From Escherichia phage Pollock, in the sequence record NC_027381.1: a DNA stretch of 64,000 nt; one strand, written 5' to 3'. Under the pieces are notes generated by a model. It was not told where the DNA came from. It saw nothing but the letters and a program-made list of their open reading frames with translations, and did no database searches. Of the stretch, positions 1 to 12,630 are shown in pieces (the first letter of the stretch is position 1; every line of letters begins with the position of its first letter). The position numbers were made by a program, and so were the translations under genes.

Positions 1-60
1 AATGCACACAATCATTCTGTAAGCAAAGTACTCCCCCCCCCCCATACTTCACACATTGAT

Positions 61-85
61 GAGTCTTCGACTCTAGTGGAGCAAT
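61..85 (+). promoter_or_regulatory. Hairpin promoter-like motif copy 1 (candidate virion-RNAP early promoter)
   Basis: Inverted repeat gagtc-TTC-gactc (5-bp stem, 3-nt loop) followed by tagtggagcaat; same architecture recurs at 1501, 1551 and 3828; lies about 45 nt upstream of ORF 119..454. N4 vRNAP promoters are small DNA hairpins with 3-nt loops. Confidence 0.5.
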
Positions 86-118
86 GGTGCTCTACTTAAT
101 CATGATTAGGAGTATGTT

Positions 119-454
119 ATGAAACCTGTTAACTCTATCGGTATCTTTGGTGCTGTATCTTCCTCTACTGTATCTGCATTGAATGCAATTGAACGTGGTG
201 CAGTAGCTGTAGCTAATACTGCTAACATGGCAGTAGCTCTTACTGAATGGGGTAATGAGGAGATTGAGAACCTTCGTCATCATCGTGCTATGAAGCGTGA
301 AGTAGAAGGTGAAATCTTCCGAACCAAGTATGTAATGGAAGCAGCTAAAGAAGTAGCTGAAGTACATGCAGAAGCCAATAAAGCTATGGAGAGTGCATCT
401 CCCGAAGTTAAAGCAGTATTTGATGCATTAGTAGCTAAGCATCTCAACAAGTAA
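119..454 (+). CDS. Early hypothetical protein, Ala-rich, 111 aa
   Basis: ORF directly downstream of hairpin motif copy 1; followed by hairpin plus T-run terminator at 463..487; no recognisable domain. Confidence 0.5.
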   Translation: MKPVNSIGIFGAVSSSTVSALNAIERGAVAVANTANMAVALTEWGNEEIENLRHHRAMKREVEGEIFRTKYVMEAAKEVAEVHAEANKAMESASPEVKAVFDALVAKHLNK

Positions 455-462
455 TTACTAAG

Positions 463-487
463 CCTACTCTTCGGAGTAGGTTTAAAA
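463..487 (+). terminator. Rho-independent terminator
   Basis: cctactc-ttcg-gagtagg stem-loop followed by TTT, immediately after the stop of ORF 119..454. Confidence 0.6.
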
Positions 488-696
488 ATTCTAATTCACA
501 CATTACACATCAGATAGATAGTATGTACATAAACACATGTGTATCCATACATATCGCTATAACGCTCTAGGAAGCTCTACAATGAGATTAAGGGTAGAGG
601 TAATAGGGTAACTCATGTTGATTTAATTCAATTGATTCTAGCTATGCTAGAAGACTTATACATTACTTACTTCTTAAGCTTCTCACTTCGTGAGTA

Positions 697-1035
697 ATGG
701 GTAGAAGTAAAAGGAGTATTTCAATGGCTATCATCAAATCAATCATAGGTTCTAATACAGAACCAGAAACACTTGTAGTAAACAAATACAAAGAGCCATA
801 CGATGTATACATCGGTAGAGGTTCAATATGGGGGAATCCCTTTACAATTCAAGAATATGGTAGAGGCAGATGTATAGCCATGTATGAGCAATACATACGT
901 CAAAGACTACATCAAGAACCAGACCTATACCTTCAATTACTTGAGCTTAAAGGTAAGCGATTAGGATGCTTCTGCAAACCTAAAGCATGTCATGGAGACA
1001 TACTTATTAAGCTTATCCAAGAGTACTCAAACTAA
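697..1035 (+). CDS. DUF4326-like protein
   Basis: Motifs YDVYIGRGSIWGNPF and C-terminal GCFCKPKACHGD resemble the DUF4326 family signature. Confidence 0.5.
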   Translation: MGRSKRSISMAIIKSIIGSNTEPETLVVNKYKEPYDVYIGRGSIWGNPFTIQEYGRGRCIAMYEQYIRQRLHQEPDLYLQLLELKGKRLGCFCKPKACHGDILIKLIQEYSN

Positions 1036-1500
1036 TATCCTAATTTTCCTTATTTTCAATAAATATACTATAGAACACCTAAAGACTATCTAGATATTTA
1101 AAAGGGTTATTTATGGTTACTCAAATCACAGTAGCTGAATGCGTTCGATTGGAATGGGAAAGTCATTATTACTTACCATTTATTGAACGTTACAAACTAA
1201 TCTCATTAATCAAAAGAATACTGGAGAACTAAATGGAATGGTGGAAAGCAGAACTAATCCAGTCAGTAATTGGAGCAATTATTGGTTTAGTTGTTGTCTA
1301 TGCAATGGTTAAGTTTGGAGGAGATGAAGATGCGTAAATCATTAATCATGGGTACTAAAGCTGATGTTATTAAGATGAAAGCTAAACGTCAGATGTATAA
1401 AACAGTGACTTTTGCAGAACGTTATAGTACATCTGAACCAGTGAATCGTATTGTTACTTTCAATCATCCAATCCTTAAAACTATGTAACCCTTTTCATCA

Positions 1501-1525
1501 CCGTCTTCGACGGTGGTGGAGTAAT
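1501..1525 (+). promoter_or_regulatory. Hairpin promoter-like motif copy 2
   Basis: ccgtc-TTC-gacgg followed by tggtggagtaat. Confidence 0.5.
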
Positions 1526-1550
1526 CCTCAAGATTCTCCTTCGTTTGTAA

Positions 1551-1577
1551 GAGCGACTTCGTCGCTGGTGGAATAAT
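1551..1577 (+). promoter_or_regulatory. Hairpin promoter-like motif copy 3
   Basis: agcgac-TTC-gtcgct followed by ggtggaataat; about 40 nt upstream of ORF 1607..2020. Confidence 0.5.
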
Positions 1578-1606
1578 CCAATTAATTAACTATCGAGGTA
1601 TATATC

Positions 1607-2020
1607 ATGGCTATTCTGAATGGAAATAACGCTTCTTCTATCATCGGTGCTGCTCTGAATGGTAAAGCTACAAACAATACTCAACGTCCTCAAGCTGAAA
1701 TCTTTCTGAATGTAGGTATTACTGTTCAGTTACCTAACGAAGAAGGAGAAATGGTTGATACTTTCCTGTCTCTGCCATTTGGTTTACCACTGGATACTAT
1801 GAATGAATTAGTAATTCGCGGTAGTAACGCTCAATGGAATGGGCAAGCTGCTGCTCGTAATGAGTTACTGAAGGCTTTGATGAAAATGGGTGAATCTCTG
1901 GAAGCTGGTAGTGGTACAGAGTTACCTAAACTTCAGGTTCAATTATATCGTCGTAAAGCACAGGAAGAACATATTGCAAGCAACAATGCAATGTCTCAAA
2001 TCCTTGCTGCATTAAGCTAA
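1607..2020 (+). CDS. Early hypothetical protein, 137 aa
   Basis: ORF downstream of tandem hairpin motifs; codon choice (CTG, CGT, GGT) differs from neighbouring AT-rich ORFs, suggesting high expression; terminator follows. Confidence 0.5.
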   Translation: MAILNGNNASSIIGAALNGKATNNTQRPQAEIFLNVGITVQLPNEEGEMVDTFLSLPFGLPLDTMNELVIRGSNAQWNGQAAARNELLKALMKMGESLEAGSGTELPKLQVQLYRRKAQEEHIASNNAMSQILAALS

Positions 2021-2028
2021 TACTAATC

Positions 2029-2053
2029 GGGGAGCCTTCGGGTTCCCCTTTTA
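2029..2053 (+). terminator. Rho-independent terminator
   Basis: ggggagcc-ttcg-ggttcccc stem-loop followed by TTTT. Confidence 0.7.
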
Positions 2054-2055
2054 AA

Positions 2056-2250
2056 TTGGAGGTAGGTATGAAGATATTAGCAGTGTTTCTATTGTTCTTA
2101 TTACTGCTTAGTAATGTATTACTGGAAGTACTTGATAAGGATACAGTGCAATATCAACAACAAATGGAATGCATTAAGAAGAAAATATCTCATGGCATTC
2201 CACGTAGTTCAATCCAGTTAACAGACAGTTCTTGTAAGGTGATTAAATGA
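2056..2250 (+). CDS. Small membrane or secreted protein, 64 aa
   Basis: N-terminal hydrophobic stretch ILAVFLLFLLLLSNVLL. Confidence 0.35.
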   Translation: MEVGMKILAVFLLFLLLLSNVLLEVLDKDTVQYQQQMECIKKKISHGIPRSSIQLTDSSCKVIK

Positions 2251-2426
2251 GTATCTTTATTGTAGTTTTATTTTTCTTTCTTCTTCTCCCTTCTTTTAGA
2301 AGATTAGTATTTAAAGCACTTCGTGCTCTTCTCAGAGTATTTGGATTTGTTTTATTTATTCCAGTAATTATATGTACTGTTATTTATGCATCAATAAAAG
2401 AAGCAAATCATAAAAGAAGATATTAA
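2247..2426 (+). CDS. Small hydrophobic protein, 59 aa (hand-called, below ORF-track cutoff)
   Basis: ATG overlapping the upstream stop (ATGA); product largely hydrophobic (IFIVVLFFFLLLP, FGFVLFIPVIICTVIY). Confidence 0.3.
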   Translation: MSIFIVVLFFFLLLPSFRRLVFKALRALLRVFGFVLFIPVIICTVIYASIKEANHKRRY

Positions 2427-2476
2427 ATAACAGCTCCCAATTAAGGGAGCTTATTAAACTATTAAAGAGATAGTCG

Positions 2477-2722
2477 ATGAATAAAGAATTAATATTTATT
2501 CTTAGTTGCATACGTGAATCAATGTGTGATTACACAGAAGATGAATATGAAAATGATACATCTCAATATACGAAAACAGATGACTTATGTCTTGAAGTAA
2601 TGCTCCATAAATGTTCTTCCTTTCCTAAAGAAGAAAAAAATTGTAATGCTTGCCTATTAACTTATAAAAATAATATTGGGTATTCATCTCAAATAACAAT
2701 AGTTATTCAAAAATTAATCTAA
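2477..2722 (+). CDS. Small Cys-rich protein, paralog family member (MNKELIxIL N-terminus)
   Basis: N-terminus MNKELIFILSCI shared with ORFs at 3044, 3214, 3387, 3599, 4381, 5732 and 5923; several Cys in C-x(n)-C ... C-x2-C spacing. Confidence 0.45.
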   Translation: MNKELIFILSCIRESMCDYTEDEYENDTSQYTKTDDLCLEVMLHKCSSFPKEEKNCNACLLTYKNNIGYSSQITIVIQKLI

Positions 2723-2795
2723 AGATTATCAATATTGGTAGTCCAATATTAATGTCTCTTTAGATAGTTACTCGTTAATCCAAAAGGATATCAAT

Positions 2796-3035
2796 ATGTC
2801 AAAGAAACCTAAATCACTTAAACTGCAAGAAGTTAAATTAGGAGATGTTCCTGATTATTTAGTTACTTATAGTCGTGTAGACCGTATCTGGGGAGTACAT
2901 ATTAATGGTACTTCTGTATATATTCTTAAACGATTAGTAGGTAAAAAGTACATGTATTATGTAGGTAGTCGTTATTTTAAGACACTACGTAATGCAATAT
3001 TTAGTGTTGTATTAGGAAATTCACTTCCTTTCTAG
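2796..3035 (+). CDS. Hypothetical protein, 79 aa
   Basis: ORF with AAGGA upstream; no recognisable domain. Confidence 0.35.
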   Translation: MSKKPKSLKLQEVKLGDVPDYLVTYSRVDRIWGVHINGTSVYILKRLVGKKYMYYVGSRYFKTLRNAIFSVVLGNSLPF

Positions 3036-3043
3036 GAGAAGTA

Positions 3044-3217
3044 TTGAACCAAGAATTAATACTTATTCTCTCATCTATAAGTAAATCAAAACTTTGGTGT
3101 AATTGTTATCCTATAGCATGTACTGGAGTACATTGTTTTCATTGCGTTTTGTATGAGGATATCCAACCTAGTATGTATATTGCTAAAATTTTAAAAATAG
3201 GTGAGAGAATACTATGA
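3044..3217 (+). CDS. Small Cys-rich protein, paralog family member (TTG start, hand-called)
   Basis: Translation LNQELILILSSISKSKLWCNCYPIACTGVHCFHCVLYED; AGGAG about 7 nt upstream of the TTG; stop overlaps the next paralog start. Confidence 0.4.
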   Translation: MNQELILILSSISKSKLWCNCYPIACTGVHCFHCVLYEDIQPSMYIAKILKIGERIL

Positions 3218-3390
3218 ATAAAGAATTGATAGCTATTCTTAATTATATAGAATCATGTCCAAATTTGTGTATTCACCTAACTCCACATATTGCTTGTAAT
3301 AATATTTCATGTACTTGTTGTCCTATGTTTAGAGTAATTAGAAGAACTTACTTTAAAGACATAGCAAAAGTAGTAGAAAGAATAGTATGA
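3214..3390 (+). CDS. Small Cys-rich protein, paralog family member (hand-called, 58 aa)
   Basis: Translation MNKELIAILNYIESCPNLCIHLTPHIACNNISCTCCPMF...; ATGA overlaps with both neighbours. Confidence 0.45.
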   Translation: MNKELIAILNYIESCPNLCIHLTPHIACNNISCTCCPMFRVIRRTYFKDIAKVVERIV

Positions 3391-3602
3391 ATCAGGAATT
3401 AATACTTATTCTTAAATCTCTGTGTAATATAGAAGATTACTCAATAAGAGGAATTCTATGTACAGTCATAATAGCAAAACCAAATGAAATAGGATGTGAA
3501 CACATATCATGTAGTAATTGTTATTTTGTTAGAACAGGGCCTGTAAAACACGAATATAAATTAAAAATTAGAGAAACAATTGAGAACTTTAAAACAATAT
3601 GA
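3387..3602 (+). CDS. Small Cys-rich protein, paralog family member
   Basis: MNQELILILKSL N-terminus; CEHISCSNCYF Cys cluster; 4-nt overlap with the next paralog. Confidence 0.5.
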   Translation: MNQELILILKSLCNIEDYSIRGILCTVIIAKPNEIGCEHISCSNCYFVRTGPVKHEYKLKIRETIENFKTI

Positions 3603-3805
3603 ATAAGGAATTATTATTAATAATTCAATCACTAGTTAATTTAATTTATCTTTATCATAAGAATATGCTTTGTAAAGAAATAAGAGGAAAAGCTCCGAAA
3701 TTACACTGTATCGGTGTAGAGTGCGCTAATTGCTATTATTCTTTGTCTTCTCCTGTAGAAAAAAGATATGGCTTAAAGATAGAAACCACCATTAAACAAT
3801 TCTAA
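3599..3805 (+). CDS. Small Cys-rich protein, paralog family member
   Basis: MNKELLLIIQSL N-terminus; CIGVECANCYY Cys cluster. Confidence 0.5.
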   Translation: MNKELLLIIQSLVNLIYLYHKNMLCKEIRGKAPKLHCIGVECANCYYSLSSPVEKRYGLKIETTIKQF

Positions 3806-3827
3806 TTCTCTTTGTCGCTTCGCTCCT

Positions 3828-3852
3828 CTGCCTTCGGCAGTTCTGGGGTAAT
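3828..3852 (+). promoter_or_regulatory. Hairpin promoter-like motif copy 4
   Basis: ctgcc-TTC-ggcag followed by ttctggggtaat; about 30 nt upstream of macro-domain ORF 3870. Confidence 0.45.
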
Positions 3853-3869
3853 TTCATTTAGAGGTACTT

Positions 3870-4373
3870 ATGTTAGAAGCTCGCGGTAATATGCTTGAGA
3901 TGGATTGTGATGCTCTATGCATTACTACTAATGGATTTGTTAAAAGCAATGGTGCATCAGTTATGGGTGCAGGTATTGCTAAACAAGTTCGAATAGCTAT
4001 TCCGGGAATTGATAAGATTTTAGGACAGAAAATTGCTCGTGAAGGCAATAACGTTCATCCAATCATTAACCATAATAATATCTGGATAGTATCCTTTCCT
4101 GTTAAACCAATAACTGAAATCAGTAATGGGAGTAACTTCGTAAAACATAAATATTTCCCTGAAGGGACAACAGTTCCGGGATGGGCATGTAAAGCGAATA
4201 TCAACTTGATAGTACGTTCCTGTCATCAGTTAGTAAAACTAGCTAATCAGTATGGTTGGCAGAAAGTATTACTACCTAGACCGGGATGTGGTGCTGGAGA
4301 ACTTAACTGGAATTATGTGAAAAAGGTTATCGAACCTTTATTAGATGACAGATTTATTGTCTGTACTTATTAA
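3870..4373 (+). CDS. Macro-domain-like protein (putative ADP-ribose binding or hydrolysing)
   Basis: N-terminal DALCITTNGFVKSNGASVMGAGIAKQ resembles the macro-domain DA-x-V-N-A-A-N ... G-G-G-V motif region; C-terminal LLPRPGCGAGEL resembles the second glycine-rich loop. Confidence 0.5.
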   Translation: MLEARGNMLEMDCDALCITTNGFVKSNGASVMGAGIAKQVRIAIPGIDKILGQKIAREGNNVHPIINHNNIWIVSFPVKPITEISNGSNFVKHKYFPEGTTVPGWACKANINLIVRSCHQLVKLANQYGWQKVLLPRPGCGAGELNWNYVKKVIEPLLDDRFIVCTY

Positions 4374-4380
4374 AATATTT

Positions 4381-4587
4381 ATGAAAGATGAATTAATCAT
4401 CATTTTAAATGAAATATGGTCATTACCAGAATACCAAAATATACGTGGTCCTAAGGAAGAATTATGTAGAAGAATAACATGTACCGGAGTTCACTGTACA
4501 AATTGTCCTCTTGGTTATTTCTTAAAAGACGAAGATTACGTCTCTCAAATCCATAAAATATTGGAAGTCATTAATCATGAAATATGA
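4381..4587 (+). CDS. Small Cys-rich protein, paralog family member
   Basis: MKDELIIILNEI N-terminus; CTGVHCTNCPLGYF Cys cluster (same CTGVHC as ORF 3044). ORF track begins at 4345; ATG 4381 after the macro-domain stop is the likelier start. Confidence 0.5.
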   Translation: MKDELIIILNEIWSLPEYQNIRGPKEELCRRITCTGVHCTNCPLGYFLKDEDYVSQIHKILEVINHEI

Positions 4588-5500
4588 AACTCAACTCCTG
4601 ATTGAATCTATGTTCAACCGTCATCAAGAACGTGAACTCATTAGAAATGAATTAAGAAGTTCACCTGAAATTATGGAGTTAGTTAATGCTGCTGTTAGTA
4701 AAGCATTGGAATGGGTTAAAGGAGATTACTTTGAAAGTAAGAATAAACGTTTAGCTTTATTAGATACCAATATTTTAGAAGATTTTTATATTGATGTTGC
4801 TGGTTCATTGGCTCAGTTTGGTAAAGCTAAGTATACCCAAGTAGTAGGTATGGTGTCTGGGATGATAACTACTATGTCTCAGAAAGAGGCTATACGTACT
4901 GCTGGCGAGTTAATTTCATTAGCAGCTATGGTAGACCTAGTTGATGTGATTCCTGCGTCTATGAGCATTACAGGCTCTATGGAATTGGTTTCTCGTATTC
5001 AACTTGAACCAAAAACATTAGAACTGATTGACCAGTATCAGTATCTTCCTCCAATGATTGTTCCACCTGAACCAGTTAAATCAAATACTGGTAGTGGATA
5101 CCTGTCTATTAAATGGGATTCGTTAATTCTTAAAAAGAATCATCATGAACATGATATCTGTTTAGATAATATCAATAGATTCAATTCTGTAGCATTTTGT
5201 CTGAATGAACGAGTTATCCGTAATATTCGAGATAATCGTAAACATCTGGATAGTGCTAAAGCAGATGAGACTGCTGATGAGTTTAAAGCACGAGTAGAGT
5301 CATTCCTAAAAATGGAAAAAGAATCTATGAAAGTATTTGCAATGCTCATCAATGAAGGAAATAGATTTTATCTAACTCATAAATATGACAAACGAGGACG
5401 TACTTACTGTCAAGGTTACCATGTCTCCTACCAAGGTAATACGTATCGTAAAGCTATTCTTGAATTAGCTGATAAAGAAATAGTACCTATTGAGGAATAA
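4577..5500 (+). CDS. Phage RNA polymerase II subunit 1 (N-terminal portion of a T7-like RNAP; N4 RNAP II small-subunit analog)
   Basis: C-terminal DKRGRTYCQGYHVSYQGNTYRKAILELADKE aligns with T7 RNAP DWRGRVYAVSMFNPQGNDMTKGLLTLAKGK; upstream of the catalytic subunit ORF as in N4-like phages. Confidence 0.7.
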   Translation: MKYETQLLIESMFNRHQERELIRNELRSSPEIMELVNAAVSKALEWVKGDYFESKNKRLALLDTNILEDFYIDVAGSLAQFGKAKYTQVVGMVSGMITTMSQKEAIRTAGELISLAAMVDLVDVIPASMSITGSMELVSRIQLEPKTLELIDQYQYLPPMIVPPEPVKSNTGSGYLSIKWDSLILKKNHHEHDICLDNINRFNSVAFCLNERVIRNIRDNRKHLDSAKADETADEFKARVESFLKMEKESMKVFAMLINEGNRFYLTHKYDKRGRTYCQGYHVSYQGNTYRKAILELADKEIVPIEE

Positions 5501-5502
5501 TT

Positions 5503-5739
5503 ATGGCTGAATTATCTAAACCAGAACAACTCATTAAGATTACGTTATTACTCCGTAATATTCCAAATGAGTTAGATACGCATTTTTGTAGTACTCATCC
5601 TGCATGTGAAAAATTATGTGGACCTAAACATGATAAAAGTAAATGTGCTTTATTTACATGCTCTGAAGAAGAGATTAAGAAAACTATCTTTGGATTAGAT
5701 GCAGCAGGGAGAATGTTAGGAATTATCCCTGATGAATAA
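5503..5739 (+). CDS. Small Cys-rich protein, 78 aa (divergent)
   Basis: Multiple Cys (CSTHPAC, CGPKHDKSKC, FTC); lies between the two RNAP subunit genes. Confidence 0.4.
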   Translation: MAELSKPEQLIKITLLLRNIPNELDTHFCSTHPACEKLCGPKHDKSKCALFTCSEEEIKKTIFGLDAAGRMLGIIPDE

Positions 5740-5926
5740 AGAATTAGTTTTAATCCTTAAAGAAATAAAAAGAGTATCTGAAACTTCTAAACATGGATGT
5801 ACTGGTAGTAAATTTAAAGAATTATTTCGTTGTTTAAATGTATCTTGTGGAGTATGTATATTAAATAATATACAAAATCCAAAAAAGTATAATTATCAAA
5901 TATTCTCTATTCCAATAAATCTATGA
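5732..5926 (+). CDS. Small Cys-rich protein, paralog family member
   Basis: MNKELVLILKEI N-terminus; CLNVSCGVC cluster. Confidence 0.5.
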   Translation: MNKELVLILKEIKRVSETSKHGCTGSKFKELFRCLNVSCGVCILNNIQNPKKYNYQIFSIPINL

Positions 5927-6135
5927 ATAAACAATTTATTCTTATATTGGATTCAATTAGGGATTGGGCAAAATCAGAATTTTCTTGTAAGGGTGGACTG
6001 TTAACTATACGCGATACATATATAAATGAACATTTATGTGGGTATTTATGTACCTCATGCCCTATTGTTCAAGTAAGAAGTAAACAACTTTATCCCGACC
6101 AAATCATTCAAACTTCCTCTCAACTAATTAAGTGA
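5923..6135 (+). CDS. Small Cys-rich protein, paralog family member
   Basis: MNKQFILILDSI N-terminus; CGYLCTSCP cluster; 4-nt overlap with the RNAP catalytic subunit start. Confidence 0.5.
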   Translation: MNKQFILILDSIRDWAKSEFSCKGGLLTIRDTYINEHLCGYLCTSCPIVQVRSKQLYPDQIIQTSSQLIK

Positions 6136-7370
6136 GACTCAATATGCAACAGTTTACAGCTTTCCAATATATCAAATTAGATATTGCTAACTCTTTTGGT
6201 TTAGATAAAGAACTGTTTGATGACCGTATCAAATGGTTTGAAGAAAACAAAAATAATTTAGCTAATTTGGTAAATGATGCAGATGAACCTGCTCAATTCT
6301 ACGCAGGTATGTTGGCATACCAAGATGTACTGGAAGGTAAACCAATTGGTTATTTAGTAGGTATGGATGCTACTGCATCTGGATTGCAGTGTATGGCTGC
6401 ATTAACTGGCTGTAAGACTACCGCTGAAACAGTAAATCTTATTGACCCTAATTGTCGTAAAGATGCTTATACCGATGGCTATAAAGTCATGGGAGAACTA
6501 CTTAATGGCAAGATTGATAAGATTGACCGTAAGGATTTGAAGGGAGCTATTATGACTCACTTCTATGGTTCTCAAGCAAATCCTAGAAGTGTATTTGGTG
6601 AAAATACTATAGAACTACAAAAGTTCTATGAAACTGTTCAAACCATTGCTCCCGGTGCAAATATGCTACGAGATGATTTAATCAATCTCTGGCAACCAAA
6701 AGCACTTCAACATTTATGGGAATTACCAGATGGCTTTACTGCTGTCGTTAAAGTAATGACCATGAAAGAAGAAAGCTTTGAAGTAAATGAATTAAATAGT
6801 TCCTTTACTCATCGTTATTGGGTTAATGAGGGTCAGGATTTTGGTTTATCACTTGCTGCTAATGTTGTTCACTCTGTAGATGGGATGGTAGTACGTGAGA
6901 TGAATCGTCGTGCTAACTACGATGAAACCAAAATACAGCGTGTATATGAGCTTCTGACTGGTTCAAACAATACAGGTATTGTGGACTATACAGTAGATGA
7001 TAAACAGCTTAAGAGAGCTATTGAGCTTGCTGAAAGACATCGTTTTGTTTCTACTGTGATGATTGAGTTCATTAACCATGAGAATGTACATATGATTCCT
7101 TTATGGATTAAGAACCAACTCATCGAAATTATTGAGAAGATGTTGGCTCATAAACCATATGCATTAATTGCAATTCATGATTGCTTTAAATGCCATCCTC
7201 TGTATATGAATAACGTGCGTCAGAACTACATTGATATCTTTGCTCAGATTGCAGATAGCACAATGCTTCAAGCAATTGCATCTCAAATCTCTGGTAAACG
7301 TATTCCAGTAACTAAACTGTCTAATGACCTTTCAACATACATTCGTAAATCCAACTACATGCTTAGTTAA
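6132..7370 (+). CDS. Phage RNA polymerase II catalytic subunit (T7-like single-subunit RNAP palm and fingers)
   Basis: Motif A-like GMDATASGLQC (T7 DGSCSGIQH), motif B-like RKDLKGAIMTHFYGS (T7 KRSVMTLAYGS), NVVHSVDGMVVRE (T7 NFVHSQDGSHLRK), motif C-like IAIHDCF (T7 LIHDSF). Confidence 0.85.
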   Translation: MRLNMQQFTAFQYIKLDIANSFGLDKELFDDRIKWFEENKNNLANLVNDADEPAQFYAGMLAYQDVLEGKPIGYLVGMDATASGLQCMAALTGCKTTAETVNLIDPNCRKDAYTDGYKVMGELLNGKIDKIDRKDLKGAIMTHFYGSQANPRSVFGENTIELQKFYETVQTIAPGANMLRDDLINLWQPKALQHLWELPDGFTAVVKVMTMKEESFEVNELNSSFTHRYWVNEGQDFGLSLAANVVHSVDGMVVREMNRRANYDETKIQRVYELLTGSNNTGIVDYTVDDKQLKRAIELAERHRFVSTVMIEFINHENVHMIPLWIKNQLIEIIEKMLAHKPYALIAIHDCFKCHPLYMNNVRQNYIDIFAQIADSTMLQAIASQISGKRIPVTKLSNDLSTYIRKSNYMLS

Positions 7371-7379
7371 GGAACTTCT

Positions 7380-7760
7380 ATGTCCATTTTCACTAATGTA
7401 ACTATTACCATTGACCCATTAGGTCATTACGTATCTATACCTCGTGACCGTATCCGTGATTCTTTAGGATACATTCCTCAAATTGTGGAACGTGGAGTAC
7501 GTCAAGCCAAAGATGAAAAAGATGCTGGTTTCTGGATTTGGACAATTTATCAGTATGGTAATCCTCTAAATCCACCTGAAACCAAATTGAAATTTAAAGA
7601 TGGTATTCTGACCTATCCAAAAGAAGAACCAAAATATCCAATAGCTGTTTATCACCTTAATAATGTTGCCGGATTAGATATCCGGTTTTGGCAATATGAA
7701 CATGCTATGACTGTATATACAGTTAATGGTAAAGCAATTTTATTCGGGAGAATGGATTAA
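7380..7760 (+). CDS. Hypothetical protein, 126 aa
   Basis: ORF only; no recognisable motif. Confidence 0.45.
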   Translation: MSIFTNVTITIDPLGHYVSIPRDRIRDSLGYIPQIVERGVRQAKDEKDAGFWIWTIYQYGNPLNPPETKLKFKDGILTYPKEEPKYPIAVYHLNNVAGLDIRFWQYEHAMTVYTVNGKAILFGRMD

Positions 7761-8101
7761 TGATTAAAGTAGGTAATATGGTCAGAATGGTCTTTACTAA
7801 AGACCCAGAACAACATACATCCAATGTAATAATCAAAGGGTTATACATGGATAAAGCATGGGTAATGTATGAACAGTCAGGTAAAGATGAAATTATTGAT
7901 TTAGCTGACGTAAGCTTTGGCAACCCTATTCCAGAAGAACCTGCAAATCATTCTTTTGTAGCCAGAGACTATAGTGGTAATTGGCTATATTGGGACCATA
8001 AAAAAGGTTACTGGTATGAATGCAATGACCCAACACAACACGAAGAACAAGAAGTCTCTTTACCGATTAATCAAAGCAAGCCAACTCAACCCATTTACTA
8101 A
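7760..8101 (+). CDS. Hypothetical protein, 113 aa
   Basis: ORF with ATGA overlap to the upstream gene. Confidence 0.45.
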   Translation: MIKVGNMVRMVFTKDPEQHTSNVIIKGLYMDKAWVMYEQSGKDEIIDLADVSFGNPIPEEPANHSFVARDYSGNWLYWDHKKGYWYECNDPTQHEEQEVSLPINQSKPTQPIY

Positions 8102-8224
8102 AATCTGGTTAAATGGGCGTCATTATGACGTCCATAATGTCTTTGATAAAGGGGAATATATTCAAGCTTACTTATGGACAGGCTGGGTATATTCCCCCTG
8201 CTTATTTAATAAAGAGGATTATAT

Positions 8225-8476
8225 ATGGCATTTAGTAAATTATGGAAAGCTATCCTAGTATTCACTTTTTTGTTAATTGGTAGTGCTTATAGTAAGGAAC
8301 ACACATTAAATCCTATATCTGAAGAAATGGATGTTCAAAGAATCCATGATGATGAAGCAGGCGTTACTTGCTGGATTTTATATGTTCCTAATACATCTAG
8401 ATATCAAATGCCTGACCATTACAGTATGAGTTGTTTACCTAATACTGTAATCAAACCAGAAGCAATTAAAAAATAA
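8225..8476 (+). CDS. Small secreted protein, 83 aa
   Basis: N-terminal signal-peptide-like stretch AILVFTFLLIGSAYS. Confidence 0.4.
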   Translation: MAFSKLWKAILVFTFLLIGSAYSKEHTLNPISEEMDVQRIHDDEAGVTCWILYVPNTSRYQMPDHYSMSCLPNTVIKPEAIKK

Positions 8477-8502
8477 ATAATTAAAACTTATAACTTCATA
8501 CT

Positions 8503-8532
8503 AAGCCTCCTTTTATGGAGGCTTTTAGTTTT
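8503..8532 (+). terminator. Rho-independent terminator
   Basis: aagcctcc-ttttat-ggaggctt stem-loop followed by a T-rich run. Confidence 0.65.
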
Positions 8533-8579
8533 ATACAAATGCTTCTTATACAGGAGCATCTTTATAAAACTATGTAGGA

Positions 8580-9035
8580 TTGGATATGAAAGTTAAACTG
8601 AAAGTACTTCCATTTAATAACACCAATATGAGCTTACCTAAACCAGCAACAGATGGTTCTGCTGGTATTGATTTACGAGCCAATACAGTTATGCCATTCG
8701 AACTTAAACCGGGAGAAACTACTCTGGTAAATACTGGTTTAGCTATCCATCTGGATGATGTTCACTATGCAGGTATGATTTTACCTCGTTCTGGGTTAGG
8801 GCATAAACATGGTATTGTGCTTGGAAATCTTACAGGTCTCATTGATAGTGATTATCAAGGGGAACTGATGGTAAGCCTCTGGAATCGCTCTACAAAGCCT
8901 TTTACTATTAATCCAGGTGACCGTATTGCTCAGTTAGTTATTGTGCCTGTAATGCAGCCTGAATTTGTTATAGTAGACTCTTTTGAAGCTACTGAAAGAG
9001 GCGAAGGTGGTTTCAACTCTACTGGAGTTAAGTGA
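8580..9035 (+). CDS. dut: dUTP pyrophosphatase (dUTPase)
   Basis: Conserved trimeric dUTPase motifs: [33 protein letters not shown], and C-terminal glycine-rich motif. Confidence 0.85.
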
Positions 9036-9208
9036 TGACTGAACCAATGAGTAAGTTTGAGCTAGAAAGACATATCCATAATCTTAAGGAATATGATTCC
9101 AAGATTGCTGGTCATGAATCTGAAGTAGTTCGTCTACAAGAAGAACGTCGAGAGTACATTAATCGACACAATCTTAACAAGATTGCAGAGAAGGTATTTC
9201 CTGCTTAA
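9035..9208 (+). CDS. Small hypothetical protein, 57 aa (hand-called)
   Basis: ATG overlapping the dUTPase stop; charged helical sequence. Confidence 0.3.
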   Translation: MTEPMSKFELERHIHNLKEYDSKIAGHESEVVRLQEERREYINRHNLNKIAEKVFPA

Positions 9209-9234
9209 GCGCCTACGGCGCTCTCTTTGGTTAT
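9209..9234 (+). promoter_or_regulatory. Second-class hairpin motif (TAC loop plus TCTCTTTGG)
   Basis: gcgcc-TAC-ggcgc followed by tctctttggttat; similar elements at 10011 and 18161; function unknown. Confidence 0.3.
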
Positions 9235-9263
9235 AGCTACCTTCGGGTAGCTTTTTATTTTTT
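9235..9263 (+). terminator. Rho-independent terminator
   Basis: agctacc-ttcg-ggtagct stem-loop followed by TTTTTATTTTTT. Confidence 0.75.
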
Positions 9264-9582
9264 GGGGAAAATGATGGCTAAAGAACCAATCTCCAAACTA
9301 TGTATTCCTATTGGAGATAAATATGAAATTACCTCTAATGGGTATTCATATGTATTAGTTGAGAAAAGAACTGTTCAATCAGGAGTTAAAGCTGGGACTA
9401 CTGCTTCCAGTAATGTTGGTTATTTTCAGACTTTAGGTTCTCTTGCTAAACAGTTAATTAATAAAGAAGTATGTGAAACTAACATTACTTCTTTACAACA
9501 ATTAAATGAGCGTATCGAAGAACTAGGTATTGGTATAGCTCAGTTACTTGAACAACTTGTTAAACAAAATGAAGGTAAATGA
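9262..9582 (+). CDS. Hypothetical protein (likely true start ATG at 9271)
   Basis: ORF after a terminator; C-terminal coiled-coil-like sequence. Confidence 0.4.
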   Translation: MGKMMAKEPISKLCIPIGDKYEITSNGYSYVLVEKRTVQSGVKAGTTASSNVGYFQTLGSLAKQLINKEVCETNITSLQQLNERIEELGIGIAQLLEQLVKQNEGK

Positions 9583-11786: not shown

Positions 11787-12630
11787 TAAATTAATAGGCA
11801 TTTATGGGGGAAACCTCATATCTAAAGCTACTTAAAACGGGGAACTCTTAGTAGTGTATATACACTAAAGACAATCCGTTGCTAAATAGGAATTAAGATG
11901 CAAGAAGTTTGGAAAGCTATTCCCGGATATGAGAAAGAATATGAAATTTCTACTCATGGACGGATTAAGAGTTTAGATAGAGTCGTTCCTTGTAAACATG
12001 GCACTCGCCTTGTTAAAGGAAAATTATTAAAAACCTATATTAATCGAAAAGGGTATTTAATTGTTACTTTATCTAAAGAAAATAAACTGAAAACATATAC
12101 CGTACATCAGTTAGTTGCTCTTACATTTATTCCAAATTTCATTAAAGGCACAGAAATTAATCATAAAGACGGTAATAAATCCAATCCAGTATTAGATAAT
12201 TTAGAAATTAGCAACCCTAGCCATAACCAGTTACATGCTATAGCTACAGGTCTTAAAGCAAAGGTTGGTAAGAGTAAATACCACAATGTAACTTACATTA
12301 AAAACCCACGGGCTAAGAAAAAGTGGGCTGCAAGTATAAGTTATAATGGGGAAAAATCTTTTGGATGGAAAACATTTATGACAGAAGAAGAAGCTGCAAG
12401 ATATGTAGATAAACTTCTTGATGAAATAGGTGATACTTCCCGTTTAAGAAATTTCTAATTAATTCCTTAAATGCCCAACGACTAGTCGAAAGACGTAGGC
12501 TCAAGTGAGTCGAAAAAGTAGCTCCCCAAACAAGTAAAGTTGTGGGGATTGATATAGTCTGCTCTATATAGAAATATATAGCTGGATTAATTATCCGGGT
12601 AATGATTAACGACCATTACTGAACATAAGG
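11787..12630 (+). mobile_element. Group I intron carrying an HNH homing endonuclease (intron 2 of the MoxR-like ATPase gene)
   Basis: R-like CAACGACTAG and S-like GATATAGTCT elements downstream of the HNH ORF; exon ends in U, intron ends in G; splicing yields AVQAAAYKLLDRMVGQT, matching MoxR QSALLEAMQERQVTIGGQT. Confidence 0.7.
11898..12458 (+). CDS. Intron-encoded HNH homing endonuclease
   Basis: N-terminal WKAIPGYEKEYEISTHGRIKS (NUMOD4-like), HNH core HQLVALTF...NHKDGNKSNPVLDNLE...HNQLH, C-terminal AP2-like WAASISYNGEKSFGWKTFMTEEEAARYVD. Confidence 0.8.
   Translation: MQEVWKAIPGYEKEYEISTHGRIKSLDRVVPCKHGTRLVKGKLLKTYINRKGYLIVTLSKENKLKTYTVHQLVALTFIPNFIKGTEINHKDGNKSNPVLDNLEISNPSHNQLHAIATGLKAKVGKSKYHNVTYIKNPRAKKKWAASISYNGEKSFGWKTFMTEEEAARYVDKLLDEIGDTSRLRNF

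Follow-up and report, generated by a model that had tools for sequence, protein, structure and literature searches.

A fast-evolving family of small tetra-cysteine proteins arrayed in the early left end of the N4-like phage Pollock

In phage N4, gp1, gp2, gp15 and gp16 are early products of the injected virion RNA polymerase (vRNAP), which acts from hairpin promoters (PMC4496689). Between the homologs of gp2 and gp16, and on the same strand, the N4-like podophage Pollock (Schitoviridae, Humphriesvirinae) carries eight copies of a gene for a small cysteine-rich protein. They lie in the early left end of the genome, the region studied here within a window of 64,000 nucleotides of Escherichia phage Pollock (sequence record NC_027381.1), to which the coordinates below refer. 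The genes are unmentioned in the Pollock genome announcement (PMC4319500). The same family was catalogued automatically as PHROG 16571 (with phrog_32354, 14146 and 28062), of unknown function; it is split over several such entries, which hold neither a function, nor a description of its four-cysteine motif, nor a record of the paralog array. That description, of motif and array in a fast-evolving phage early accessory gene family, is what is new here. In the reading that we favour, and to which we give an even chance of being right, the proteins would be metal-stapled helical scaffolds with variable loops, made early and aimed at host targets for takeover and/or counter-defence.

Several described systems come close to this family in one respect or another. 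Conotoxin- and defensin-type families, the internal proteins of phage T4 and poxvirus host-range families resemble it in evolutionary mode, with a conserved handle, frozen cysteines, fast loops, and birth and death of copies. This is an analogy, as those proteins are secreted, packaged or eukaryotic-viral, whereas the Pollock proteins appear to be cytoplasmic early phage products that carry no recognisable signal or cleavage motif. The N4 cofactors gp1 and gp2 share no homology with the family, and the gp2 homolog of Pollock is a separate gene (1607-2020). N4 gp8 (PF25713) belongs to the same compartment and size class, that of small early proteins that are unneeded for the transcription cascade. 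It has no sequence relation to the family, and it is a single-copy and slow gene (72-97% identity in the clade versus 35-56% for the family).

The eight copies are open reading frames (ORFs) of 57-81 amino acids (aa), all on the + strand and all at the starts given in an earlier, sequence-only reading of this DNA:

2477..2722, + strand: F1, 81 aa; longest linker upstream of the first cysteine (C1); acidic, isoelectric point (pI) 4.7; family hidden Markov model (HMM) E = 2.4e-21; best PHROG phrog_32354
3044..3217, + strand: F2, 57 aa; TTG start with an AGGAG Shine-Dalgarno sequence upstream; phrog_16571 E = 4.5e-7
3214..3390, + strand: F3, 58 aa; ATGA-coupled to F2
3387..3602, + strand: F4, 71 aa; ATGA-coupled to F3; phrog_16571 E = 4e-11
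3599..3805, + strand: F5, 68 aa; ATGA-coupled to F4; phrog_16571 E = 3e-26
4381..4587, + strand: F6, 68 aa from the family-consensus start; its 3' end overlaps by 11 nt the start of RNAP1, the gene for subunit 1 of RNA polymerase II (RNAP II)
5732..5926, + strand: F7, 64 aa; between RNAP1 and RNAP2, the gene for RNAP II subunit 2
5923..6135, + strand: F8, 70 aa; ATGA-coupled to F7; it ends in a GTGA overlap with the GTG start of RNAP2

An HMM made from the eight copies recovers each of them with E = 1e-21 to 1e-28, which together with the ORFs confirms eight paralogs at these positions. The earlier count was "at least eight": eight stands, but more does not, as the family HMM finds no ninth copy within the 64-kb window (next match E = 0.16). 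The ORF at 5503-5739, which overlaps F7 by 8 nt, was considered as a ninth, divergent member and ruled out, since its hhalign probability against the family is 2% and it evolves slowly (67-92% identity in the clade, where the family has 35-56%). For F6, the alternative ATG at 4345 (a GenBank-style call) gives the 80-aa CPT_Pollock15, a 100% identical match. The ATGA stop-start joins described before are present at four junctions (F2/F3, F3/F4, F4/F5 and F7/F8), the F8/RNAP2 junction being GTGA, and the copies are indeed interleaved with a macro-domain gene (DarG-like) and with the two RNAP II subunit genes (gp15 and gp16 homologs). In some relatives the proteins end in tails such as …YEQRTNSNTSRNARN and …NHETRNSTPD (L051 451-702 and 656-841; F6 orthologs in L003 and L005), which correspond to the conserved 5' codons of the next gene in another frame. 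These odd tails, and the overlaps of 29-47 nt that go with them, arise because the ATGA stop is lost. The tails (NEQRTNSNT, NHETRNSTPD) were thus ruled out as a motif, being an out-of-frame reading of the start of the next gene.

Alignments were made of 28 copies from three phages, then of 77 members, and then of 173 database representatives, and the picture was unchanged. Across the 77 members the cysteine pattern is C1-x(4-18)-C2-x(3-5, rarely up to 11)-C3-x2-C4. The four cysteines are invariant in the 28 sequences and 97-100% conserved across the 173 representatives. The motifs first quoted for the four-cysteine pattern (e.g. CTGVHCTNC) cover C2-x4-C3-x2-C4 only; the pattern itself holds, with the fourth invariant cysteine, C1, located 4-18 residues upstream. 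An N-terminal amphipathic helix, MNxELIxILxxI, keeps positions M1, N2, L5, I8 and L9, and a C-terminal helix, Y..QII, is common to the family, with L5, I8 and the tyrosine conserved at 99%, 93% and 90% across the 173 representatives. CP-L is often found after the last cysteine. Outside this scaffold both sequence and length are variable: the C1-C2 spacing runs from 4 to 18, and the C2-C3 spacing is 4 in 49 of the 77 members and 3 in 12 of them. The alignments thus bear out the conserved N-terminal helix, four cysteines and hypervariable body claimed in the sequence-only reading. The pI lies anywhere between 4.4 and 9.9; of the 77 proteins 27 are acidic and 27 basic, and this absence of a common charge points to diverse partners rather than to one nucleic-acid target. 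The codons for MNKELILIL vary synonymously between copies (TTA/TTG/CTT/CTC, ATA/ATT/ATC), a sign that selection acts on the peptide rather than the DNA. Conservation of the 5' ends at the DNA level, by gene conversion, as a recombination site or as an RNA signal, was ruled out, since synonymous sites vary and the DNA repeats among copies span just 26-45 nt, with an identity of 64-81%.

AlphaFold2 models of F2 (m811eea52f01a, helices 3-14 and 45-56) and F6 (m020a4af34ce1, helices 2-13, 24-30 and 52-66) predict the order helix, cysteine loops, helix, with no strands, each at a predicted local distance difference test score (pLDDT) of 67. The label "zinc-ribbon-like" proposed earlier does not fit. 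A classical zinc ribbon has two CxxC/CPxC knuckles, whereas the family has only one, C3-x2-C4, and no zinc-ribbon family was matched. The beta-sheet of a zinc ribbon is missing from the models, which contain helices and coil only, but with a pLDDT of just 67, and fold searches of the PDB and BFVD returned no structural match.

We can predict that the four cysteines form a metal site, most likely Zn(Cys)4. Apart from a metal, little else could stabilise chains as short as 57-81 aa. Rare subfamilies without C1 or C2 among the 173 representatives carry a histidine nearby, a pattern typical of structural zinc sites. Small Cys4 zinc modules, such as rubredoxin-like knuckles, TraR/DksA C4 fingers and ZAS, also have four cysteines in about 60 aa with one CxxC, a likeness that implies a structural metal site, and ZAS and TraR further share the helical context (predicted here) and the distal first ligand. 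The family does not carry the TraR/DksA motif. It differs from the ZAS motif H/C-x3-C-x2-C in that its C2-C3 spacing is mostly 4, and no Pfam match to an anti-sigma zinc finger is found at E <= 1. It is quite unlikely, in our estimate, that an iron-sulfur (Fe-S) cluster takes the place of zinc on the four cysteines, which would make these proteins small redox or cluster-dependent regulators with a WhiB-like mode of action. The distal cysteine followed by a C-x3-5-C-x2-C cluster, with the CP ending in 46% and C-x3-C-x2-C in 12 of the 77 members, would suit this possibility, and phage-encoded WhiB-like Fe-S proteins exist. However, the WhiB order C-xn-C-x2-C-x5-C is not matched, the order being reversed in the family with the CxxC last, and there is no Pfam match to an Fe-S or WhiB family at E <= 1. 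The cysteine-to-histidine changes mentioned above also speak for structural zinc, and Fe-S proteins made minutes after infection would rely on the host Isc/Suf machinery.

The rate and pattern of change set these genes apart from their neighbours. L046, a metagenomic relative of Pollock (run SRR6474907), served as the close comparison genome; its neighbouring genes are 93-100% identical to those of Pollock at the protein level, whereas the F2, F3, F6, F7 and F8 orthologs are only 73-82% identical. For F1-F8, the proportions of nonsynonymous (pN) and synonymous (pS) differences are 0.068 and 0.094 (pN/pS 0.73), versus 0.0097 and 0.068 (pN/pS 0.14) for the neighbouring genes, so that pN is 7-fold higher in the family (Fisher p = 2e-10). 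Nonsynonymous divergence (dN) exceeds synonymous divergence (dS) for F7 and F3; in F7, dN = 0.112 and dS = 0.055, with 16 nonsynonymous and 2 synonymous differences. The dS is raised in F2, F6 and F8, which suggests that recombinational exchange of alleles contributes too. Across genera, family orthologs are 35-56% identical, versus 77-92% for RNAP1, RNAP2 and the macro-domain gene. The change is confined to defined places. In 36 close ortholog pairs, substitution is 0% at the cysteine columns and 0-11% in the helix core, versus 15-45% in three segments: the linker leading to C1, the residues between C2 and C3, and the loop that follows C4.

Copies are also gained and lost. The F3 ortholog of L046 (5228-5400) has a TGT>TGA premature stop within the cysteine motif, and we read it as a member caught during loss, i.e. 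pseudogenised. Some orthogroups of relatives are missing from Pollock, with lineage-specific gains and losses. Paralogs within Pollock are 27-40% identical and many have positional orthologs in other genera, which indicates that the duplications are old and that the copies have been individually retained. We interpret this pattern as birth-and-death evolution in which a defined surface is under either positive selection or strongly relaxed constraint. That the family is diversifying, as first suspected, is supported by the 7-fold faster amino-acid change, the 7-13 copies per genome and the pseudogene in a relative.

The same data bear on whether the array has little or no function and consists of selfish or drifting cassettes kept by translational coupling and by recombination at the conserved 5' ends. 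A pN/pS near neutrality for several copies, the pseudogene in a close relative and the variable copy number could be explained in this way, and repeated 5' ends could mediate unequal recombination. We consider it very unlikely nevertheless, as the four cysteines, L5, I8 and the tyrosine are 90-100% conserved across 173 diverged representatives, and the synonymous variation in the conserved N-terminal codons indicates selection at the protein level. Furthermore, the paralogs are old and yet remain intact ORFs in every genome, and the DNA repeats among them are short and imperfect.

The family was found in every Humphriesvirinae-like genome examined, with 7-13 copies each: 8 in Pollock, 13 in SP154, 12 in FSL SP-058, 7 in Pylas, 8 in KpCHEMY26 and 10-12 in three metagenomic relatives. 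The related loci were gathered with the RNAP1 protein as query. The nearest GenBank relatives of Pollock are Salmonella Ithacavirus phages (about 82% nucleotide identity) and Klebsiella Pylasvirus (about 76%), all Schitoviridae, Humphriesvirinae. The F6 ortholog occupies the same position in all eight related genomes, and the F8 ortholog likewise in all related genomes. In N4, the family HMM finds no member in the left 12 kb (best E = 0.6); homology to N4 gp13 or to other small N4 early proteins was ruled out on this ground. A motif scan of 35 other N4-like loci returned 0-1 such ORFs each. Since N4 and these loci lack the family, the core N4 programme evidently does not need it.

A word-indexed search of 5.8 billion proteins gave 35 clusters only, none of them named, and an exhaustive profile search gave 167 clusters at 50% identity, nearly all of 55-93 aa, which are placed inside one narrow phage clade. 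Short metagenomic contigs with family members repeat the tandem layout, macro-domain gene included. In PHROGs, phrog_16571 gives full-length matches to seven of the eight copies (E = 8.5e-4 to 2.5e-30), and the best match of F1 is phrog_32354 (E = 7e-4). Sequence searches of Pfam, NCBIfam and PDB with single copies and with profiles returned nothing above threshold; the only Pfam matches at E <= 1 are those of F4 to RING-type zinc fingers (E = 0.0016-0.046), far below the cutoffs. The sequence-only reading did not recognise the family, and this is upheld: its proposed profile searches retrieved no known characterised domain, the PHROGs are of unknown function, and the family is not described in the literature searched.

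The genes that surround and separate the copies are as follows:

1607..2020, + strand: homolog of N4 gp2 (RNAP II cofactor); its L046 ortholog matches PF26984 Phage_N4_Gp2
2029-2048: strong terminator-like hairpin, directly after the gp2 homolog
2796..3035, + strand: homolog of N4 gp8 (host DNA replication inhibitor family), PF25713 N4_GP8, E = 1.5e-25; between F1 and F2
3870..4373, + strand: macro-domain gene, DarG-like and ADP-ribosyl hydrolase-like (NCBIfam antitoxin_DarG, Pylas annotation); between F5 and F6
4577..5500, + strand: RNAP1, RNAP II subunit 1, homolog of N4 gp15 (BLASTP 37% identity, E = 1e-50)
5503..5739, + strand: 78-aa cysteine-rich ORF with five cysteines, not a family member (phrog_22821, E = 6e-54); between RNAP1 and F7
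6132..7370, + strand: RNAP2, RNAP II subunit 2, homolog of N4 gp16 (PF00940 RNA_pol, E = 1.1e-19)

The macro-domain gene matches NCBIfam antitoxin_DarG (DNA ADP-ribosyl glycohydrolase) with E = 8.7e-11, below the curated cutoff, and its ortholog matches PF01661 Macro weakly; its product may reverse DarT-type ADP-ribosylation. Short metagenomic contigs (L052), too, have this gene conserved beside copies of the family. Two small hydrophobic ORFs of 64 and 59 aa lie immediately behind the gp2 terminator and ahead of F1 (2056-2426). They probably encode membrane proteins, and the second is poorly kept in the clade (33-41% identity). ARAGORN found no tRNA gene in window 1-64000. Four tRNA sequences were reported for Pollock in the genome announcement (PMC4319500), which could mean that they are located in the approximately 4 kb outside the window or that the calls came from a different program.

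The place of several copies around the RNAP II subunit genes led the sequence-only reading to mention RNAP accessory factors. The proteins would then be RNAP II accessory subunits or regulators, or an early-to-middle switch, with their helices docking on gp15, gp16 or gp2 and the paralogs tuning promoter use. F6 overlaps the start of RNAP1, F7 and F8 lie between the subunit genes and the F8 stop overlaps the RNAP2 start, and the F6-type and F8-type copies hold these positions in all eight related genomes. The distant N4-like contig L041 has its own eight-copy array with a similar cysteine motif exactly between RNAP1 and RNAP2. In addition, N4 RNAP II requires cofactors, and a postulated factor 'X' is not yet identified (PMC4496689). 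On the other hand, N4, in which RNAP II was defined, carries no copy, and the 35 other N4-like loci have 0-1 candidate ORFs each by motif. In about 40 N4-like loci (L002-L045), RNAP1 and RNAP2 are separated by anything from -24 to 4186 bp, which indicates that this junction is a general hotspot for insertion of accessory genes in Schitoviridae. After this survey of 40 loci, location between the RNAP II genes was discounted as functional evidence, and the earlier suggestion is weakened to that extent. Five of the eight Pollock copies are elsewhere, around gp8, the family dN is 5- to 10-fold faster than that of the RNAP II subunits, and the pI range of 4.4 to 9.9 also argues against such a role. 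We consider a function with RNAP II to be unlikely.

As for expression, a scan for hairpins with a 5-7 bp stem, a TTC loop and TGGRGYAAT found three places only in the 64 kb (61, 1499-1515 and 3828), all intergenic, on the + strand and in the left end. With a fourth of variant type, the promoter-like hairpins are:

61-73, + strand: promoter-like hairpin, intergenic, left end
1499-1515, + strand: sister promoter-like hairpin, intergenic, left end
1552-1566, + strand: fourth hairpin of this type, with the variant tail TGGAATAAT, intergenic
3828..3840, + strand: N4-type early-promoter-like hairpin with a 5-bp stem and TTC loop, followed by TGGGGTAAT; it heads the block macro-F6-RNAP1-F7-F8-RNAP2

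Analogous hairpins are found in N4 at 558 and 4547, and the four hairpins of Pollock probably serve vRNAP as early promoters, as the hairpin promoters of N4 do. The hairpin at 61 is kept in L006, L008, L009 and L010, and a run of eleven C lies just upstream of it, near the left end (33-43). Sigma-70-like promoter sites in window 1-9500 number 22, versus 44 +/- 7 in shuffled sequence, a depletion that fits a region transcribed by phage polymerases.

This setting also bears on the possibility that the N terminus is a targeting or leader sequence, either of virion-packaged and injected proteins of the T4 internal-protein type or of precursors of ribosomally synthesised and post-translationally modified peptides (RiPPs), with a leader and a core. 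T4 internal proteins and RiPP precursors resemble a conserved N terminus followed by a hypervariable cysteine-rich body, and in the unrelated phage contig L050 distant homologs have a radical S-adenosylmethionine (SAM) gene in their vicinity. We judge it highly improbable, since these are genes of the early region that run in the same direction as gp2, gp15 and gp16, and the ORFs profiled between 119 and 8101 gave no maturase-like match. The C-terminal helix and all four cysteines are conserved, which does not correspond to a leader plus a free core, and a helix of 12 residues has neither the length nor the apolar character of a signal peptide. Virion mass spectrometry of phage B2, a relative of Pollock that carries family members, lists none of them (PMC11654681).

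Similar cysteine cores were found outside the clade. L041 is a very divergent N4-like contig, its RNAP2 being at most 40% identical to that of any GenBank phage. Its array (3063-5163) consists of eight tandem 80-95-aa ORFs with a C..C-x4-7-C-x2-C core, which have no match among GenBank phages. These copies conserve the C terminus (ILEDNPDII..VELLG), whereas the family conserves the N terminus. P0136, P0139 and P0152 are two-domain proteins with the cysteine core in other phage contexts, and they share with L041 the core LC-x(n)-C-x-G-h-x-C-x-x-C and local multiplication amid small ORFs. Between the family and these distant arrays the cysteine core only can be aligned (hhalign probability 31%, hmmsearch E = 2e-4), and homology is plausible. 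In L050, a phage-like contig, adjacent small ORFs with an LC..C.G..C..C core occur at 7327-8181 and 11871-12128. P0136 has two copies of the core, fused downstream of DnaJ-like CPxCxGxG half-motifs, with a radical SAM gene nearby (8618-9334).

We return to the host-directed scaffold proposed at the outset. According to this proposal, the Pollock genes belong to a lineage-specific multigene family under birth and death, encoding small early proteins built on one scaffold. The MNxELIxILxxI and Y..QII helices would probably pack together as a helical hairpin, and the tetra-cysteine metal site would staple the intervening loops. Scaffold residues are frozen; positions next to the cysteines, and the loops that precede C1 and follow C4, vary fast in sequence, length and charge. 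The genes would be transcribed in the first wave, behind vRNAP-type hairpin promoters, and translated as coupled chains. The variable loop face of each paralog would bind a different host protein, and an arms race with variable host targets would drive diversification and copy turnover. We favour this proposal because of the frozen scaffold and fast loops, the diversity of charge, the turnover of copies, the dispensability in N4, and the early, host-directed neighbourhood, in which copies adjoin the homolog of the gp8 inhibitor of host replication and the DarG-like macro-domain gene. To our knowledge, lytic phages rarely keep 7-13 paralogs of anything.

Several points weigh against it. We infer the function of all members from their sequences, as we do metal binding, the helical-hairpin fold and host-directed binding. 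The AlphaFold2 models are only moderately confident (pLDDT 67, predicted template modelling score 0.40-0.47). The CxxCP ending (46%) and the C-x3-C-x2-C spacing (12 of 77) are seen in Fe-S motifs too, and zinc and Fe-S are not separable by sequence. The overall pN/pS of 0.73 is below 1, and relaxed constraint or recombinational import of alleles could contribute to the rapid change. Early expression of the family genes is likely, on the indirect basis of synteny with N4 and of promoter-like motifs. Finally, an F6-type copy upstream of RNAP1 and an F8-type copy upstream of RNAP2, translationally coupled to the subunit genes, are present in every genome, a placement that would suit a role internal to the phage, for these two at least.

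A bolder possibility, which we regard as doubtful, is that the array could be a phage library of mini-binders, in which an arms race would have diversified one new metal-stapled helical-hairpin fold and each paralog would neutralise a different host immunity or housekeeping protein, with the cysteine cores of L041, L048 and L050 belonging to a wider, so far unrecognised superfamily. Such an array would be a counterpart of anti-CRISPR loci, but drawn from a single expandable scaffold.

The paralogs occupy 2.5-3.5% of a 70 kb genome, and the family is a strong candidate in the search for new activities in host takeover or anti-defence. The phages that carry it infect E. coli, Salmonella, Shigella and Klebsiella and are under consideration for therapy. 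The small size of the proteins puts systematic expression screens, and structures by nuclear magnetic resonance, within reach, and, if the fold is new, it may offer a compact, evolvable binder scaffold. If their role should instead be internal to the phage, e.g. in tuning RNAP II, the family would add missing parts to the N4 transcription paradigm.

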